Source: Escherichia phage FL15
Direction: 5' to 3' (one strand)
Length of the DNA stretch: 64,000 bases
Sequence record: PP400778
Part shown: in pieces, positions 3,732 through 32,946 of the stretch
How positions within the stretch are numbered: position 1 is the first letter of the stretch
Layout: every line of letters starts with the position of its first letter
The notes under the pieces: generated by a model
Database searches by the model: none
The model's input: only the letters and a program-made list of their open reading frames with translations
Told to the model about the DNA's origin: nothing
Program-made: the position numbers and the translations under genes

Positions 3732-3767
3732 ATTCACTATTCCTTCTTTTGATTAATTTACTAGACT

Positions 3768-3795
3768 ATTATACAGATTTAAATTTACTTGTCAA
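3768..3795 (-). promoter_or_regulatory. sigma70-type promoter upstream of gene 32
   Basis: Minus strand TTGACA (3790-3795), 16-nt spacer, TATAAT (3768-3773). Confidence 0.55.
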
Positions 3796-5008: not shown

Positions 5009-5605
5009 TTAACCCTCTTTCGTCATTAATTGAAAACCACGTTCAGCTTTTGAAATTTCGCTAGGACTTAAATCGTCACCAACATATTCTAGCATCATTT
5101 CTCGGATAATGTCAAGTGCTTTTTCATCACCTGATTTTAACTCGAACTCAAGTTCATAGTGAGCCTCTCCCATTCTTTCGCCGACTTTGCAATAATAGAA
5201 AGTGTCTTTGCACATTTCCACTATAGCACCCTCAAGGTCAAGTGTCAATGACTTGCGGTATGTCATTACTTGCAATAAAGGAACGATAAGGTCGGAGTTT
5301 ACGCCTAGACTATCAACATAATGATAGAAATCATCCATTGTTGAAAAAGTAATTTCTTCTCGGTTGAAGAGTCCAGATTCACTATCACCTATTTTGACCA
5401 TGATCAATGATCTATTAACGTCAAGTCGAGCATAAATTCCTTTTCGACGCAGTGCATGATCTTCGGTATCATAATAAAATTCGTGTTTTAGAGTGTTAGC
5501 ACGATCTACTAGATTGTATCCGTCATACATTGCTACCCACAAATCACAGATTGTTTCGACGCCAATTTGTGAGTGTGCATAGTATTTTAATTCAAGTTCT
5601 TTCAT
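5009..5605 (-). CDS. CYTH-domain protein (triphosphate tunnel metalloenzyme family, YgiF N-domain-like)
   Basis: 198 aa; N-terminal ELELKY (ExExK), FYYDTEDHALRRKG...R, ELEFELKSGDEKAL and C-terminal SKAERGF all match CYTH signature positions. Confidence 0.75.
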   Translation of the reverse strand: MKELELKYYAHSQIGVETICDLWVAMYDGYNLVDRANTLKHEFYYDTEDHALRRKGIYARLDVNRSLIMVKIGDSESGLFNREEITFSTMDDFYHYVDSLGVNSDLIVPLLQVMTYRKSLTLDLEGAIVEMCKDTFYYCKVGERMGEAHYELEFELKSGDEKALDIIREMMLEYVGDDLSPSEISKAERGFQLMTKEG

Positions 5606-5615
5606 ATGTCAACCC

Positions 5616-6563
5616 TTAGAACTCACCAATTTTCTGCAACATTTTAACTAACGCATTTGTTACAAAATAGTTATAAATTTTACCGCGTGGCGCTGGTTTA
5701 GATTTTTCCCATGCTAACAAAATTTCATATTCGATGTTATCAGGAATAAATTCAAAATCAATAAGTTCGCGGTTTTCGTCAAAGCGTCGTGCTTCTTCCT
5801 CTGTCATCAAAGACTTTGGATCTTTGGCATCGAAAATTTGCTCTAACCATTTGGTTGCAATTGGTTTAGCTCGTTCTCCTTCCAGTCGTGAGATAATGAA
5901 ATCACTACGGCACTTGATCGAAGCTACACCGTCTTTTGCGTCACCCTTAACACATTTTACCATAAGGTCTTTGTAAGGGCTACCATATTTGCATTTCTTC
6001 CATGCTTTCTGTACTGGCGCCCACTGTTTCACATTTTTGTATTTGTGCAACTGTGTGTAGTCACCATCGCCGGAGTTGATCAGCACCTGGCGACCTTCGA
6101 CAGAAAACTTTTTAGTTAACACAGCGATTATATCATCCGCTTCAACTTTGTCAACCTTAATAACGTGATAAGGCATGTTCTCTTTAAACTCTTCGGTGAT
6201 CTTATTGATCGCAGCAAAAATCATCTCCCAATCACGCGGATCTGCGTCTCGTTTTTCCTTACGGTTGCGTTTATAGTAAGGTGCGATATCACGTCGCCAG
6301 TAACCTTTGCTTGAATCAAAGGCAAGTACCGTAATTGGGTATTGCTCTTTGAATTTTGTCATATTATAACGCATGGTGTCAAGGATAAGATGACGGATCA
6401 TGCCTTCATTAATAGGGTCTTCCGGTTTAAAGGTATGCGAGATAGTAGCAATCATAAGCTGCGACATATCAATCAAATGCACACCTTCCGGTAGTTTATC
6501 TTCTGGATCATCAAAGAAATCATTAAGTGTAGCGGTAGTTTTTGTAAACGGGTTATACGTCAT
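5616..6563 (-). CDS. rnh: RNase H / 5'-3' flap exonuclease
   Basis: 315 aa; matches T4 RNase H (GYWRRD, YYK.NR, VEADD.IAVL, SGDGD.TQLHKY.NVKQW, PRGKIY.YFV). Confidence 0.95.
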   Translation of the reverse strand: MTYNPFTKTTATLNDFFDDPEDKLPEGVHLIDMSQLMIATISHTFKPEDPINEGMIRHLILDTMRYNMTKFKEQYPITVLAFDSSKGYWRRDIAPYYKRNRKEKRDADPRDWEMIFAAINKITEEFKENMPYHVIKVDKVEADDIIAVLTKKFSVEGRQVLINSGDGDYTQLHKYKNVKQWAPVQKAWKKCKYGSPYKDLMVKCVKGDAKDGVASIKCRSDFIISRLEGERAKPIATKWLEQIFDAKDPKSLMTEEEARRFDENRELIDFEFIPDNIEYEILLAWEKSKPAPRGKIYNYFVTNALVKMLQKIGEF

Positions 6564-6565
6564 AA

Positions 6566-6751
6566 TTAAGTTCTCTCCACTCTCACAACAACATATTCGC
6601 CAAACGAGTTAGATACTTCACGATCATACCCGTACTTCTCCATAACTCGCAGAATTGCATTGTTTAGTTCTGCGCGAAAATAATTATAATCCTTATCAGG
6701 TATTCTGTCAACTATCCATTTTGCACCGTCTGACAAATCAACTTTAACCAT
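6566..6751 (-). CDS. hypothetical small protein
   Basis: 61-aa ORF with AAGAGGA SD, packed between the HNH gene and rnh. Confidence 0.55.
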   Translation of the reverse strand: MVKVDLSDGAKWIVDRIPDKDYNYFRAELNNAILRVMEKYGYDREVSNSFGEYVVVRVERT

Positions 6752-6757
6752 AATATA

Positions 6758-7321
6758 TCATCCTCTTTTTGGAAAATTTAAATAAGCATACTCGCCAACT
6801 ATTTCATGTGCTGCACGGTCATAAGCCTTAGCCGCCTCAACTTCTGTCTCAAAGTATCCTAGATGTATATTCTTTCGATTGATAACAATATACGCCTTCC
6901 ACGGCTTTTTCTTGCTTGGTGATAATGATACACCTTTATATTTGCTATGGCAAGCCTTTTTCTTTGAGACGTTAAACTGATTTTGCTGTTCGGTTGCTTC
7001 TCTCATGTTTGACGGTCTATTGTTAGTTTTGTCTTGGTCTATGTGATCTATTCGTTCAACCTGAGTACCATACTCTAAAAACCAGACAACTCTATGTACA
7101 AACAGATTAAGTTTATGACCATTGTTGTAAAATGTAAAGTATAAATATCCTTCTTTATGGAGACATACCCTTACCACATCACCTTTTTTGTATATGGACC
7201 CTTCTTTTCGGAATCCAGCAGCTACAGAATCCTTTAAATGGTATAATATTCCATCGACATGATAGAATCTACCTTTTATCGCTTTCTGTGTCTCGATATC
7301 CCAAAATTTTGTTTTTGCCAC
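6758..7321 (-). CDS. free-standing HNH homing endonuclease with AP2 DNA-binding domain
   Basis: HNH motif (HRVVWFLEYG...IDHID.DK.NNRPSNMREAT) and AP2-like YKGVS...WKAYI...HLGYFETEVEAAKAYD; likely GTG start with GAGGTG SD; paralog at 30558-31121. Confidence 0.8.
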   Translation of the reverse strand: MAKTKFWDIETQKAIKGRFYHVDGILYHLKDSVAAGFRKEGSIYKKGDVVRVCLHKEGYLYFTFYNNGHKLNLFVHRVVWFLEYGTQVERIDHIDQDKTNNRPSNMREATEQQNQFNVSKKKACHSKYKGVSLSPSKKKPWKAYIVINRKNIHLGYFETEVEAAKAYDRAAHEIVGEYAYLNFPKRG

Positions 7322-7373
7322 AACAAACACCTCACACAATAAATAATTTCATATTATAACAGGAGACCCAATA

Positions 7374-10300
7374 ATGGCAGATTTTTCTCAACATTTCAAG
7401 GCCACATTTGGCTTTGACGCTGGTAATGAAAAGGTCGTCAATGTAGCATACGCAGATAAAAACACATCAACGGATGCGGTCAACGTTGAATTTTTCAATT
7501 ACCATAATGGTATTACTCAGTATGACACAACTCGCGGTTATGATCAATACGGCACTACAATCTATCAAAACCGTCCGTATTATGCAAAAGAAGATATCGC
7601 AAAACCAGCAGGTGACTTTGACCCGACTAAATGGCAAGCACTGCGCACGGACCCACGTTGGGATTATGTTGCAGCAACTTCCGGCGATACTCCTTTAAAG
7701 TCCGGTGACTATATCGCAGCGGACTGTCAGTTTGCAAACTTGACATTCTCAATGCCTACTAATCCGGTAGAGGGCGACACTATAACAGTAAAAGATATCG
7801 GTGGCAAGTGTGGTGTTAACGAATTATCGTTCTTGAGTACAGGACATGAGTTTTACCATAATGGTAATGTGTATAACAGAAAATGGTATTGCACTACCCC
7901 GTATGCAATGAACTATTTCATCTTTGTTCGGAATCGTTGGCATGTTTATCAGACAGGAACAGAGCCACGCGGTGTGTACGCACAGCCAGCGATTGATGCT
8001 ATTCAAATGCAGAATGGTGATCAGGTATTTCGTCGTAGTTCGTTGGGTAATATTACCTTAGTGCTTCCTAAGTTTGCCAACAATGGCGACATGATCCAGA
8101 CTACAGACCTTGACGGATTAACCGCAACCAACCACGTTACGGTTAAAGTTCATGAGCACGCAGAAGAACAATCAATTGGCACGTCCGGTCTAAAAGAGAT
8201 TATCGGTAAGCGTAGCGGTCATGGTGTATTCATCTTTGACAAGACGGAAAACTTATGGCGTTTGTGGGATGGTGATCAGTCTGTTCGTCTTAAACCGATC
8301 ATCAATGACACTCGCTTGCAACCTAATAGCTATGTTTCTGTATTTGGTGGTCGTGATGTTACTCTGACGCTGCCGACCAATGTCGAGCCGGGTGATCGTA
8401 TTCAAGTTTCTATGCAGTATATGCACGGAAACCAGACTTGCCGAATCATTACCTCAGAAGAGGATACAAAAATCCTTATGCAGAAAAACATGGTTCAGTT
8501 TCCTAAGCGTAGCGAGTACCCATTCAATGGGACCGATACATGGACTGGAGTGTCTGAATTGTCTTTCAACGCTGCAAATGATTATGTACCTTATCTGGAG
8601 TTCTCTTATTCAGAAGGTGATGATGGTAAGAAATACTGGTTGGTGGCACATGCTCACCCGATTGTAGAACGAGTAGATCCGACTCGTAAAGATCGTGTTG
8701 GTGTAATTGCACTGGCTACCCAGGATGAAACAAACAAAAACCATGAAGATAATCCTAGCGACGAAGTTGCGGTGACTCCAAAGGTTCTGGCTAACAAAAC
8801 AGCCAACGAAACTCGACGCGGTATTGCTCGCATTGCGACTCAAGCGGAAACGCATCAAGATACTGGTTCCAGCTTCCTGGATGATGTTATCGTTACGCCT
8901 AAAAAGTTAAATGATTGTGTTGCTACCGAAGCCCGTCGTGGTGTAATGGAAATTGCAACTCAACATGAAACCAACGAAGGTTTAGACGATACTCGCGCAA
9001 TAACTCCTAAGAAGTTAGAAGAACGTCGCGCTTCCGAAGATCTCGCTGGTATTGCTGAAATTGTTCAGGTTGGCGGTAGTGCTGCCGCTCGACGTGGCGA
9101 AGCTGGTACAGGGATCTATAACATCAATGACCATGCTAAAATTGTTACGCCACAAAACATCAACGAAGTCAAGGCGACCGAAACTTCCCGTGGTGTTGGG
9201 TATCTGGCAACTGACGCGGAAGTGCAAGGGGCTACAGAATCAACCCCGCAAGATGCTTTACTAATCACGACTCGCACGCTAACGAAACGTACTGCTACCG
9301 AATCGCGTACTGGTATCGCTGAAATTGCAACTCAGGAAGAAACAAACTTAGGTCAAAGTGATAACCATATCATCACGCCTAAAAAGCTGCATACTCGCCG
9401 CGCAACGGAAACTTTACATGGTTTAGCAGAAATTGCAACCCAACCGGAGTTTGACGCAGGTCGTGACGATGCTCGCATTTCTACCCCATTGAAGATTAAA
9501 ACCTTCTTTGAGAATGCACAGCGTTTGAAAGTAGACCCGACTCAGGGGCTTAACCTTACTGGTGATTTGTGGCAAGGTATCATGATCAGCGGTCTGGATG
9601 CAACCGAAGACACAAAAGGTGTCGCTAAAGTTGCTACTACTCAGCTTACGGATGCTGGTCAAGATGATACTACAATCATCACTCCTAAAAAGCTGCAAGG
9701 CAAAAAGGCCACCGAAGGTAAAGAAGGTATTATCCGAGTTGGTACTCAAGCCGAAACCGTGGCTGGTGCACTGGCTAATGTAGCAATTTCTCCGAAGAAC
9801 TTCAAATATGTTGTTCAGACAGAGGATACATGGAAAGCAACCGAAGCACGTCGTGGTTTCTTGAAAGTTGCTACTCAGGAAAACTGTTTTGTTGGTGATA
9901 ATCTGCAAGGTTCTACTCAAGAACTAGGAAACTACCAGCATGACGGAATTGCTGTTACTCCGAAAGGATTAAACTACGCACTTGCTAATTTCTTACCTAA
10001 GATGGCAACCGCTCAGAATAGTTTGAAATTGGGTAACGTAGAGGCCGCTAAATGGGCGCGTAGAGACATTGACCAAATCATAGAGAGCAATTACACGTTT
10101 AATAAAAAAGTTAACGTGAAGGGCGATTTAGAGTGCTTAAAATCAGGTTCCTTTGAAACTCTGTCTGTGACTAAGAACTCGACCGATGTTCCGAGTAATG
10201 GTCATCTGGTGTTGGGTGAGCGTGGAGTTGACGGTCACACCGGAATTACTCTGCATGGCACAACCGCATCGGAAGGCATGAAAAACTCTTGGTCTATTAT

Positions 10301-29928: not shown

Positions 29929-30123
29929 TTATACATTTTCAATCACCCATTGCAGATGGGCTTCTGCGTCAACCAGTTCAGCGCGGCTTTTCTCTAAGCA
30001 CTTGCTGTATTCTTTACGTTCCCAATCAGCAATTTTGTTTTTCAGGACTTCTTCATAGTAAGCAATTACGCCTTTCAGGTCTGAAACTTTACGGCTTGCC
30101 AATTCGATGTAATGGTTACGCAT
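29929..30123 (-). CDS. hypothetical small protein
   Basis: 64-aa ORF with leader TTAGGAGAATCAAAAT. Confidence 0.5.
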   Translation of the reverse strand: MRNHYIELASRKVSDLKGVIAYYEEVLKNKIADWERKEYSKCLEKSRAELVDAEAHLQWVIENV

Positions 30124-30155
30124 TTTGATTCTCCTAAGTGGTATCTCGTTTCGAT

Positions 30156-30191
30156 GGGGACATTATGATATATCCCCGATCCAGTGTCAAC
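30156..30191 (-). promoter_or_regulatory. early promoter cassette with palindrome (PeSL-like)
   Basis: Minus strand TTGACA (30185-30190), 17-nt spacer, CATAAT; palindrome GGGGATATATCATAATGTCCCC encloses the -10. Confidence 0.5.
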
Positions 30192-30199
30192 AACTTTTT

Positions 30200-30499
30200 T
30201 TAATCTTTTTTCAGTGCGTCCATTACTCGCTCTGCGATCAGTTCTCGTAAGCACTGATAACCATGATATTTGATGGCAATGTCACGCAGATCATTAACCA
30301 GTTCCCGTACTTCATGGTCTTTCAGATCGTCTCTGTATTTCGATTTAATCGTATCTTTAGGTGGATTGCGGATAACCTGAAAACCTTGTTCTGCAATCAC
30401 TGCGGCTTCTCGCTGGCGTTCATGCTGTACTGTATTTTTGATCAGGTCTACTTCCATGAACTTTGTCATACTCATCATCATGTTATTCTTTTTGATCAT
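30200..30499 (-). CDS. hypothetical protein
   Basis: 99-aa ORF with GAGGA SD. Confidence 0.5.
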   Translation of the reverse strand: MIKKNNMMMSMTKFMEVDLIKNTVQHERQREAAVIAEQGFQVIRNPPKDTIKSKYRDDLKDHEVRELVNDLRDIAIKYHGYQCLRELIAERVMDALKKD

Positions 30500-30533: not shown

Positions 30534-30561
30534 ATTATAGAGAATCTCCCTTGTATGTCAA
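30534..30561 (-). promoter_or_regulatory. sigma70-type early promoter (TTGACA-16-TATAAT)
   Basis: Minus strand TTGACA (30556-30561) and TATAAT (30534-30539) with GGGAGA...TCTCCC inverted repeats around the -10. Confidence 0.5.
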
Positions 30562-31121
30562 CTAAAATTTAAAGATGCAAACTCCCCGTGATGAATTTTT
30601 GCATATTCATCATATGCTCTAGCGGCTTCCTCCTGAGTAGCAAACGATCCTATGTATTTTCTGTATCCGTTTATCCTTATTTGTGCTTGCCACGGTCTTT
30701 TGCTAGATCCTTTGCGATGAGTAACACCATTATATATGCTCGTGCACCCGTCCATTTTCTTTTTATTGTACATGTTTTGTTGTTGTGTTGCCTCCCGTAA
30801 ATTTGGTGGATTGTTGTTTTCTGGATTCCCGTCTATGTGGTCTATTACCTTAACCTGTGTTCCATATTCAAGAAACCAGACAATTCTATGTACAAGATAT
30901 GTAGATGTTCTCTTTTTAACCTTATTGTAAACATCTATTGCCAAATGACCGTAATTTAACTTTTTTGTTTTTACTTTATCACCGACTCGGTAGAAATATC
31001 CCTCTGGTAGACCATTAAAAGACGGACTATTTGTTTTGTGATATAGAACACCTTCCGTGTGTTCAAATCTGCGTTTTAATTCCTCTTGAATTTCAGTATT
31101 CCAAAATTTCGCACTTTTCAT
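30558..31121 (-). CDS. free-standing HNH homing endonuclease with AP2 domain (paralog of 6758-7321)
   Basis: 187 aa; LVHRIVWFLEYGTQVKVIDHIDGNPENNNPPNLREATQQQN and YNGVTH...WQAQIRINGYRKYIGSFATQEEAARAYD; begins 1 nt after the gp39 stop. Confidence 0.8.
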   Translation of the reverse strand: MKSAKFWNTEIQEELKRRFEHTEGVLYHKTNSPSFNGLPEGYFYRVGDKVKTKKLNYGHLAIDVYNKVKKRTSTYLVHRIVWFLEYGTQVKVIDHIDGNPENNNPPNLREATQQQNMYNKKKMDGCTSIYNGVTHRKGSSKRPWQAQIRINGYRKYIGSFATQEEAARAYDEYAKIHHGEFASLNFS

Positions 31122-31122
31122 A

Positions 31123-32946
31123 TTATGACGCCATCCATGCCTTCCTCATGTCTGAATCTTCACTATAGAGCAAATCGAATAGCTCTTTATAGTTTTCCGG
31201 TAACGTGATGATTTCCATTACAGGATCGTTGATCACGCGATGATAATCTGATTCTGTAAGCGATGCTAACCCTTTGATATATCGAATGCTATAACCTTTG
31301 ATATTATCTCGGTCGTTCTCAAAATCTTCTAGGTCATAATACCATCGAACATCATCACCTTTCTTTGGTTCCGCAATGATAATAGGTGTTTTGATAAACC
31401 GGATTCGTCCATATTCGAACAATTCAGGCCAACGAGCAAAGAAAGAGATCAGACTAGGTTTAATAGACCCGATCCCGTCAGTATCAGCGTCGGTCATAAT
31501 CGCAATATTTTTGTATTGCATAACTTCCAATGCATCAACACCAAATTGCAAGCCTGTGATCGCCATGATGTTAAAAATTTCGGCGTTCTTAACGATCTTT
31601 GCCTCCGGTTGTTCCCACGTTGTAAGAGTTTTGCCTCGCAACGGGAAACCTCCATGTAAATCTTGATCACGTACAGAGATCAGATAGTTGATCGCGGAAT
31701 CACCTTCCGTCAAAAACAGGGTAGTTTCTGCGTCAGTTCCAATAAGGTTAGCTTTAACGTGTTTTGCCACCTTAGCCCGTTTCGCTGCCTTTGCTGCCTT
31801 AGTCGCTGCCGCTTTATCTGCTGCCTCTTTGCGTGCCAGGACTACAGCAATAATAGGCATGATAATGTTTTCTTTCTTCGCAATGACTTTAGCCAGCTTT
31901 TTAAAATCCAGATCAATGTGTCGCTTGATATCACCAGTTGGGTTAGTCAAGCGTTCTTTTGTTTGTGAATCAAAACGAAGGTTTGGCAATTCACGAACAA
32001 TAAGAATACAGGTCAATCCAGACTTAACCGCAGCTTTAGTAACATCAACCTTATATTCTTTCTTGATTCGTTTTACAATCTCTTCACAAAGATCATCTGT
32101 CACGTAGTCTACGTGTGTTCCCCCGTTTTTGGTAAACAGACCATTAGCAAAGGATACTGATTTAAAACCTTCTCCCTCGACCGCAGGAACTAGGGCAAGT
32201 GAAAAGTTTTTATCTTCAATGACAAACGGATTATCATTGTATAGTTTAGCATAATCCTTGAACTTACTAACAATACGTTTACCATTAAACTTAAACGTGA
32301 TCTTAGGAAATATTACGCTCAATGATTGCAGACGATCATGAACAATATCTAAAACAGAGTTGTCCATCATATAACCTTCGAAGTGGTCGAAGTCTGGGCA
32401 AAATGTAACCTTTGTTCCCTTCAATTTTGATGGTTTCGATGACCATGTGATATTTTCAGCACCGTTTGTACATTGAACGGTCATTTCTGTTTCGCCGTCA
32501 CAGGTCACACCAGTAAACCAATCGCTAAAGAAATTTGATAACGACGACCCAACACCGTTCATCCCTTGCGTTAATCGATTGGTATCATCAAAGTTAGACC
32601 CTGCTTTTGTTCGTGTCCATGCGGCTACAGGTTGCGGAATCTGCGTACCCTCTGGGGTAGTAACCATATGTTGAGGAATACCGCGACCATTGTCTGTTAC
32701 CGTAACAATATTGTTTTGGATATCGACGCTAATCACATTGGCAAATTCAAAATTAGTGCGAATCGCCTCGTCTACAGAGTTGTCGATGATCTCATCAATG
32801 ATTTTAACCAGTCCAGGAACGTATGAAATTTTTGTCCACTTACCGAACAGGAAACGTTGATGTTCTTCGTAAGTTGTTGATCCTATATACATTCCTGCAC
32901 GCTTAAGGACATGCTCACGATCAGATAAAATGCGAAACTCACTCAT
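31123..32946 (-). CDS. 39: DNA topoisomerase II large subunit, fused gp39+gp60 form
   Basis: 607 aa; GyrB-like ATPase (SDREHV.KRAGMYIGS, IDEIIDNSVDE, DNGRGIP) through TOPRIM (LFLTEGDSA, IMTDADTDG) to the gp60-like C-terminus (WPELFE.GRIRF.KTP, IRYIKGL) in one uninterrupted ORF. Confidence 0.9.
   Translation of the reverse strand: MSEFRILSDREHVLKRAGMYIGSTTYEEHQRFLFGKWTKISYVPGLVKIIDEIIDNSVDEAIRTNFEFANVISVDIQNNIVTVTDNGRGIPQHMVTTPEGTQIPQPVAAWTRTKAGSNFDDTNRLTQGMNGVGSSLSNFFSDWFTGVTCDGETEMTVQCTNGAENITWSSKPSKLKGTKVTFCPDFDHFEGYMMDNSVLDIVHDRLQSLSVIFPKITFKFNGKRIVSKFKDYAKLYNDNPFVIEDKNFSLALVPAVEGEGFKSVSFANGLFTKNGGTHVDYVTDDLCEEIVKRIKKEYKVDVTKAAVKSGLTCILIVRELPNLRFDSQTKERLTNPTGDIKRHIDLDFKKLAKVIAKKENIIMPIIAVVLARKEAADKAAATKAAKAAKRAKVAKHVKANLIGTDAETTLFLTEGDSAINYLISVRDQDLHGGFPLRGKTLTTWEQPEAKIVKNAEIFNIMAITGLQFGVDALEVMQYKNIAIMTDADTDGIGSIKPSLISFFARWPELFEYGRIRFIKTPIIIAEPKKGDDVRWYYDLEDFENDRDNIKGYSIRYIKGLASLTESDYHRVINDPVMEIITLPENYKELFDLLYSEDSDMRKAWMAS

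Follow-up and report, generated by a model that had tools for sequence, protein, structure and literature searches.

The 187-aa open reading frame HEG1 is very likely a free-standing HNH-AP2 homing endonuclease gene that has spread horizontally among Krischvirus phages into the spacer between a conserved 61-aa ORF and the tail-fiber gene 34. The stretch of DNA analyzed here (64,000 nt of Escherichia phage FL15, record PP400778, referred to as the window) is an RB49-like genome of the genus Krischvirus, and its best match is phage vB_EcoM_G37-3 (97.7% identity). The class to which HEG1 belongs is already known, and several GenBank records already call the gene "homing endonuclease" (the fragment in phage FL20 is annotated as "putative homing endonuclease RB16 2"). 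It is the site between the 61-aa ORF and gene 34 that is new, and no paper was found that describes an insertion of HEG1 there. The coordinates of the features are collected in Table 1.

Table 1. Features of the HEG1 and HEG2 loci in the window.
Feature	Coordinates	Strand	Basis
HEG1, 187-aa CDS with HNH_3 and AP2 domains, very likely a free-standing homing endonuclease gene	6758..7321	minus	ORF list, sequence, Pfam, active-site alignment
GAGG Shine-Dalgarno sequence of HEG1, 8 nt 5' of the GTG	7330..7333	minus	read from sequence
Conserved 61-aa ORF that follows HEG1 and precedes rnh	6566..6751	minus	ORF list, sequence, relatives
Replacement segment, 591 nt	6770..7360	none	junction comparison
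AATAAATA, probable gene 34 late promoter, A-variant of TATAAATA, 28 nt before the ATG	7338..7345	plus	homology with non-carriers
Exact TATAAATA within HEG1, in antisense orientation, 226 nt upstream of the gene 34 ATG	7140..7147	plus	motif counts, allele comparison
TGTTATAAT, candidate extended -10 element of the sigma-70 type, facing HEG1	7353..7361	minus	consensus scan, 10/12 matches with TG
23-nt patch in gene 34 (nt 77-99), two haplotypes with 12 differences	7450..7472	plus	haplotype counts
HEG2, paralogous HNH_3 + AP2 gene directly downstream of gene 39	30558..31121	minus	Pfam, protein comparison, junction alignment
Diverged patch next to HEG2, within the last codons of gene 39 (13 of 27 nt differ)	31129..31155	minus	junction alignment

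HEG1 probably starts at a GTG at 7321, whereas the program's ORF listing runs on to a TTG at 7339, and an identical 564-nt CDS is annotated in four related records (G37-3, pEJ01, ELT4, and PTE-Eco09). Within one polypeptide, an N-terminal HNH domain is followed by a C-terminal AP2 domain, and the gene stands free between two conserved ORFs. Both domains, which the preliminary description had read from the letters alone, score above their Pfam cut-offs: HNH_3 with E = 1.6e-12 (47.3 bits, the cut-off being 24.8; the match spans residues 80-121 in the 193-aa frame) and AP2 with E = 3.6e-8 (a marginal 34.0 bits against 33.3). Although the AP2 score barely exceeds the cut-off, the match to plant AP2/ERF structures is clear, as the C-terminal 60 residues (approximately 123-186) match WRI1, ERF096, TEM1, and AtERF1 in a phmmer search (E = 3e-8 to 2e-5). 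The closest solved nuclease domain by sequence is that of the SPO1 enzyme I-HmuI (PDB 1u3e; E = 4e-4 with full-length HEG1 and 2e-3 with its N-terminal part), which is a nicking enzyme. In the alignment, D92-H93, N105, and N114 of HEG1 line up with the D-H...N...N active-site residues D74-H75, N87, and N96 of I-HmuI, and the nuclease active site of HEG1 therefore looks intact and of the I-HmuI type. In the I-HmuI structure, the catalytic histidine, the adjacent aspartate, and the two asparagines reportedly fill the roles of an H-N-N variant of the motif. I-HmuI differs from HEG1 in being intron-encoded and in carrying a C-terminal DNA-binding helix-turn-helix module instead of AP2, and the identity between the two is low.

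Matches to the HEG1 family are present in 2041 phage records, and the next-best tblastn match after the eight carrier records has 51% identity. In IMG/VR, neither a protein-pattern scan nor the exact junction pattern returned close relatives or a donor lineage of HEG1. Hairpins hide the ribosome-binding site in some T4 endonuclease genes; for HEG1 such a masking hairpin was rejected, as the fold of 7280-7348 (minus strand) is at the level of shuffled sequences (z = -0.04).

The insertion site was delimited by comparing the junctions of 7 carrier and 10 non-carrier phages after anchored extraction. In all 10 non-carriers the native spacer between the 61-aa ORF and gene 34 (ATG at 7374) is 74 nt long, and in all 7 carriers the same 591 nt take the place of 43 nt (GTTTCTATCAAGCCTYATTTTATAAATATGAACATACTATAAA) of that spacer, with identical junctions. 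Of this replacement segment, 6770-7337 is unique insert, and the remainder (7338-7360) is a diverged homologue of the native promoter-to-Shine-Dalgarno stretch, in which every carrier departs from the native sequence at 7 of the 23 positions. On the left, the junction falls immediately 5' of the Shine-Dalgarno sequence of the 61-aa ORF, and the HEG1 frame enters the native sequence by 12 nt, so that its last three codons and stop (6769..6758, AAA AGA GGA TGA) are native. The end of the HEG1 frame thus overlaps this Shine-Dalgarno sequence (AGAGGA), which the insertion leaves unchanged. Apart from a 5' leader of approximately 40 nt, the cassette consists of little more than the reading frame. 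Its neighborhood had been described as the junction of rnh and gene 34, which is right for the gene 34 side only, because the 61-aa ORF separates HEG1 from rnh (5616..6563).

It was observed that HEG1 is present in 8 of 58 related Krischvirus records (G37-3, pEJ01, PTE-Eco09, KFS-EC with two records, ELT4, PHB13, and FL20) and absent from the other 50; in RB49, Phi1, and JSE the site is empty. The insert is identical in the window, G37-3, pEJ01, and PTE-Eco09 and shows one (KFS-EC) or two (ELT4) differences in 622 positions, which amounts to 99.7-100% identity among these six phages, with the ORF intact and no or one amino-acid change. The flanks of the same genomes (1200 nt on each side) differ by 1.7-5.1%, right up to the junction. 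By flank similarity the carriers do not form a clade: the mean flank distance among them (2.4-3.7%) is not below the distance between carriers and non-carriers, and for five of the seven carriers the nearest relative by flank is a non-carrier. In FL20 and PHB13 the HEG1 copies are frameshifted and more diverged (97.9%). A ninth carrier was found in the metagenome contig MAVA01000153.1 (1250 nt, locus L024), which holds the 5' end of HEG1 with the same right junction; it is approximately 89% identical to the window and contains many single-base indels, which are probably sequencing errors. A gene that is patchily distributed, near-invariant in diverged backgrounds, and decaying in some lineages has the population signature expected of a homing endonuclease gene. 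The preliminary description had taken HEG1 for a mobile homing-type gene and had pointed to the site in relatives with and without the insert as the place to look; the gene is far from shared by all of them (50 of 58 lack it), and the identical junctions of the carriers and the near-identical insert favor mobility.

A history in which HEG1 is ancestral at the site and was deleted from most RB49-like phages is highly improbable, even though presence and absence by themselves give no direction and loss does occur, as the two visibly decaying copies indicate. Non-carriers hold 20 nt (GTTTCTATCAAGCCTYATTT) that carriers lack, so that a simple deletion cannot convert one allele to the other and a history of loss only does not fit. 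Likewise speaking against it are the near identity of the insert in backgrounds that are 2-5% apart up to the junction, the scatter of the carriers among the non-carriers by flank similarity, and the base composition of the insert (G+C of 35.5%, compared to 40.6% for the window), which is also below that of its neighbors.

HEG1 might also encode a protein that is not a homing enzyme at all, namely an AP2 DNA-binding regulator or a weapon against competing phages or host DNA, and have spread by ordinary recombination and selection. This is quite improbable. AP2 is a sequence-specific DNA-binding domain, the gene is located on a bidirectional promoter region, and phage homing endonucleases can reportedly act in virus-virus competition (PMC11620839); such a role would, however, supplement homing and not substitute for it. 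Moreover, the HNH catalytic residues are intact, the two natural frameshift alleles mean that the protein is dispensable, 50 of the 58 relatives live without it, and super-Mendelian spread predicts just such a pattern, in which a near-identical insert sits within diverged flanks.

The window contains a second gene of the same kind, HEG2, which had been proposed as a paralog in the preliminary description and bears this out: it likewise encodes 187 aa with the same two domains, and the two proteins share 46% identity (E = 6e-48). HEG1 is about 46-51% identical to other Krischvirus HNH-AP2 genes, and no third copy of it was found within the 64-kb window by tblastn. The HEG2 site is polymorphic among the relatives in the same manner as the HEG1 site, with the gene in 8 of the 58 records (JSE with two records, G5211, LF73P4, pEJ01, kvi, W115, and G37-3). 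The diverged patch at the end of gene 39 is matched by exactly these 8 carriers and not by 49 records, with an intermediate form in JEP8, and the HEG2 stop codon, too, lies in native sequence at the junction.

HEG1 and HEG2 thus each adjoin a short stretch with many substitutions in a neighbor that is conserved elsewhere, and a resistant target that was co-converted with the gene would look like this. On account of these patches beside both genes, the recognition region of HEG1 is most likely the native spacer and late-promoter stretch, which in carriers is interrupted and substituted. The patch at nt 77-99 of gene 34 is a second candidate for a target or an immunity site. Here the window has haplotype A (TACGCAGATAAAAACACATCAACG), which differs from haplotype B (TTGGCTGATAAGAATGTCAACACC) in a way that leaves four of the 12 differing positions silent. 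Haplotype A was found in all 8 carrier records and in the metagenome contig (9/9 carriers), as well as in 13 non-carrier records; haplotype B was found in 36 records, all without HEG1, and one record is intermediate. Among the phages without HEG1, RB49 has haplotype B and JSE has haplotype A. The association of HEG1 with haplotype A has a Fisher p of approximately 1e-4 with relatedness uncontrolled, and it could be plain linkage. The patch was initially considered as a unique hallmark of HEG1, and this was dropped because dense variable patches are common in the mosaic gene 34: 36 windows of 25 nt with at least 8 variable sites occur in approximately 6 kb of flanks. It is therefore notable only as being cleanly two-state and fully linked to HEG1. 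The intermediate record is that of the non-carrier Ec_Makalu_002 (H138), whose patch is 94.4% identical to haplotype A over 71 nt and might show how haplotypes A and B are related. On the left side, only three of the seven carriers have carrier-private alleles (at -103, -99, and -93 nt), which is weakly compatible with co-conversion tracts of variable length, and past approximately 130 nt into gene 34 the carriers have no common haplotype.

The complete linkage of HEG1 to haplotype A in 9 of 9 carriers would also be seen if the cassette were a passive passenger that is linked to a favored gene 34 allele or is mobilized in trans by another nuclease. Tail-fiber genes are mosaic and under selection (PMC2993671), and MobE is known to mobilize a defunct endonuclease gene in trans (PMC2790892). 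Passive carriage is nonetheless extremely improbable: haplotype A is common without HEG1 (13 records), the carriers have no common haplotype deeper in gene 34, and the ORF is intact in six phages with no or one amino-acid change, where a passenger should have decayed.

Position -13 of the late promoter is poorly conserved in RB49-type phages and can be A or T (Nolan 2006, PMC1524935), and a late promoter was accordingly defined as TATAAATA or, for the RB49 type, (A/T)ATAAATA, placed 20-55 nt upstream of a late gene on its coding strand. In all 10 non-carriers, TATAAATA precedes the gene 34 ATG by 28 nt, and carriers have AATAAATA at exactly that distance, which by this definition is a T4-type late promoter with a predicted gene 34 transcript start at about 7351. 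The stretch after the motif reads ATTT-CATA-T-TATAA-C in carriers versus TGAA-CATA-C-TATAA-A in non-carriers. In the RB49 record no late promoter is annotated ahead of gene 34 and hardly any in the rest of the genome; as this annotation could not settle the question, the RB49 late region was scanned instead, and in its structural-gene region AATAAATA was found 37-55 nt before gene 20, uvsW.1, and inh. Since A or T is accepted at -13 (PMC1524935) and AATAAATA also precedes these RB49 genes, the gene 34 late promoter is most probably still in place, and HEG1 would have been inserted just upstream of it and not over it. The insertion thus probably keeps the signals of both neighbors, with the Shine-Dalgarno sequence of the 61-aa ORF untouched and the late promoter at its native spacing in the form of AATAAATA. 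The reading of a mobile gene in a promoter region, given in the preliminary description, is supported, but the description had overlooked AATAAATA and with it the probable retention of the promoter.

The copy of TATAAATA inside HEG1 that the preliminary description had pointed out as a late-promoter core is an exact one, and it is kept in all 8 HEG1 copies. Exact TATAAATA occurs twice in the 64-kb window versus 5.7 copies expected, and (A/T)ATAAATA occurs three times on both strands together versus 12.5 expected from shuffles. All three copies (at 7140, 7338, and 12451) are on the plus strand in the tail-fiber gene block, the last lying 33 nt before the next tail-fiber ORF. One-mismatch variants of TATAAATA are depleted in the whole window as well (74 versus 122). 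No plus-strand terminator-like site was found between the internal motif and gene 34, and in RB49 a few late-promoter motifs lie 250-360 nt upstream of genes. Because the motif is avoided elsewhere and gp55-dependent recognition requires little besides it, the internal TATAAATA may fire as an extra late promoter; the resulting gene 34 transcript would have a long leader, complementary to the endonuclease mRNA over its first 180 nt.

On the opposite strand, carriers have TGTTATAAT where non-carriers have TTTTATAGT, and it is the right-junction substitutions that make the change. As a candidate early promoter, TGTTATAAT would serve HEG1, the 61-aa ORF, and rnh, and HEG1 is probably expressed early, from this improved extended -10 element created at the right junction. 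Taken further, the whole cassette might be adapted to the bidirectional promoter: AATAAATA would be a replacement late promoter, the internal TATAAATA would boost gene 34 late while silencing the endonuclease in antisense, the improved early -10 would serve HEG1 and the rnh operon, and the gene 34 late-promoter region itself would be the recognition site. This combination is rather unlikely; if true, homing would rewrite the regulation of a tail-fiber gene.

The class of HNH-AP2 homing endonuclease genes was reportedly described by Magnani et al. in 2004. In T4-related phages, one such gene has been tabulated for RB49, two for JSE, three for RB43, and six for RB16 (PMC2993671 Table 5; PMC1524935). 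The genes of RB49 (ORF040c), JSE, RB16, and RB43 have the same arrangement as HEG1, with an N-terminal HNH_3 and a C-terminal AP2 domain (Nolan et al. 2006; Petrov et al. 2010). They occur in the same phage group and are, like HEG1, free-standing between conserved genes and unevenly spread among close relatives. HEG1 differs from these catalogued genes in its site, which is empty in the three genomes catalogued in 2010 (RB49, Phi1, and JSE). A mapped cleavage site for an HNH-AP2 enzyme of a T4-type phage was not found in the literature. The closest functional model, adopted here as a working model, is T4 MobE, likewise encoded by a free-standing HNH gene, which occupies the short spacer separating the conserved genes nrdA and nrdB. 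In the recipient phage, MobE introduces a nick into one strand of the neighboring gene, within its 5' part, and it is inherited together with flanking markers (PMC2790892). MobE lacks both an AP2 domain and its own promoter and is transcribed together with nrdA, whereas HEG1 seems to be served by an extended -10 element of its own, and the late gene next to it is transcribed divergently. T4 SegF and SegG are also free-standing genes between conserved genes; they cut the endonuclease-lacking relative at some distance from where the gene is inserted, with co-conversion of flanking polymorphisms (cited in PMC2993671). In contrast to HEG1, they belong to the GIY-YIG family and make double-strand cuts.

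By analogy to these systems, homing would begin in a cell co-infected by a carrier and a non-carrier, with the early expression of HEG1. The AP2 domain together with the N-terminal region would then bind a site in the non-carrier allele, and the HNH domain, acting like that of I-HmuI or MobE, would nick one strand or cut; a nick may turn into a break at a replication fork. Recombination-dependent repair would finally copy HEG1 and nearby markers from the carrier genome.

Two insertion sites are added to those catalogued for HNH-AP2 genes in T4-type phages, the well-delimited one of HEG1 and that of HEG2 beside gene 39, and HEG1 illustrates how such a gene can settle on a compact bidirectional promoter without disabling either neighbor. 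With natural carrier, non-carrier, and decayed alleles as well as candidate targets at hand, it may be an easy system for the first biochemistry on a phage HNH-AP2 enzyme. The practical value is modest, and no concept is changed.

Some other loci vary among these phages. In FL20, pEJ01, ELT4, 011D4, G2494, and kvi, genes 32 and 59 have between them a 198-aa ORF that overlaps the end of gene 59 (at about 713-1309 of loci L004, L005, L007, L009, L013, and L015), and some records call it an HNH or homing endonuclease; the window (3738-3791), RB49, and JSE have only a short spacer there. In T4, this position is the site of segG. In the rIIA-39 region, a small indel polymorphism concerns a 65-aa ORF (RB49p004), which is present in RB49, kvi, KFS-EC, and TB34 (L020, 817-1011) between the counterparts of the window ORFs 29929-30123 and 30200-30499 and is missing from the window (approximately 30124-30199) and JSE. 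Between dsbA and rnh, the window encodes a 198-aa CYTH-domain protein (5009-5605, minus strand; Pfam E = 3.9e-6) that is kept in all relatives examined (ORF244c in RB49); its annotation as two separate ORFs in G2494 suggests that it is disrupted there.
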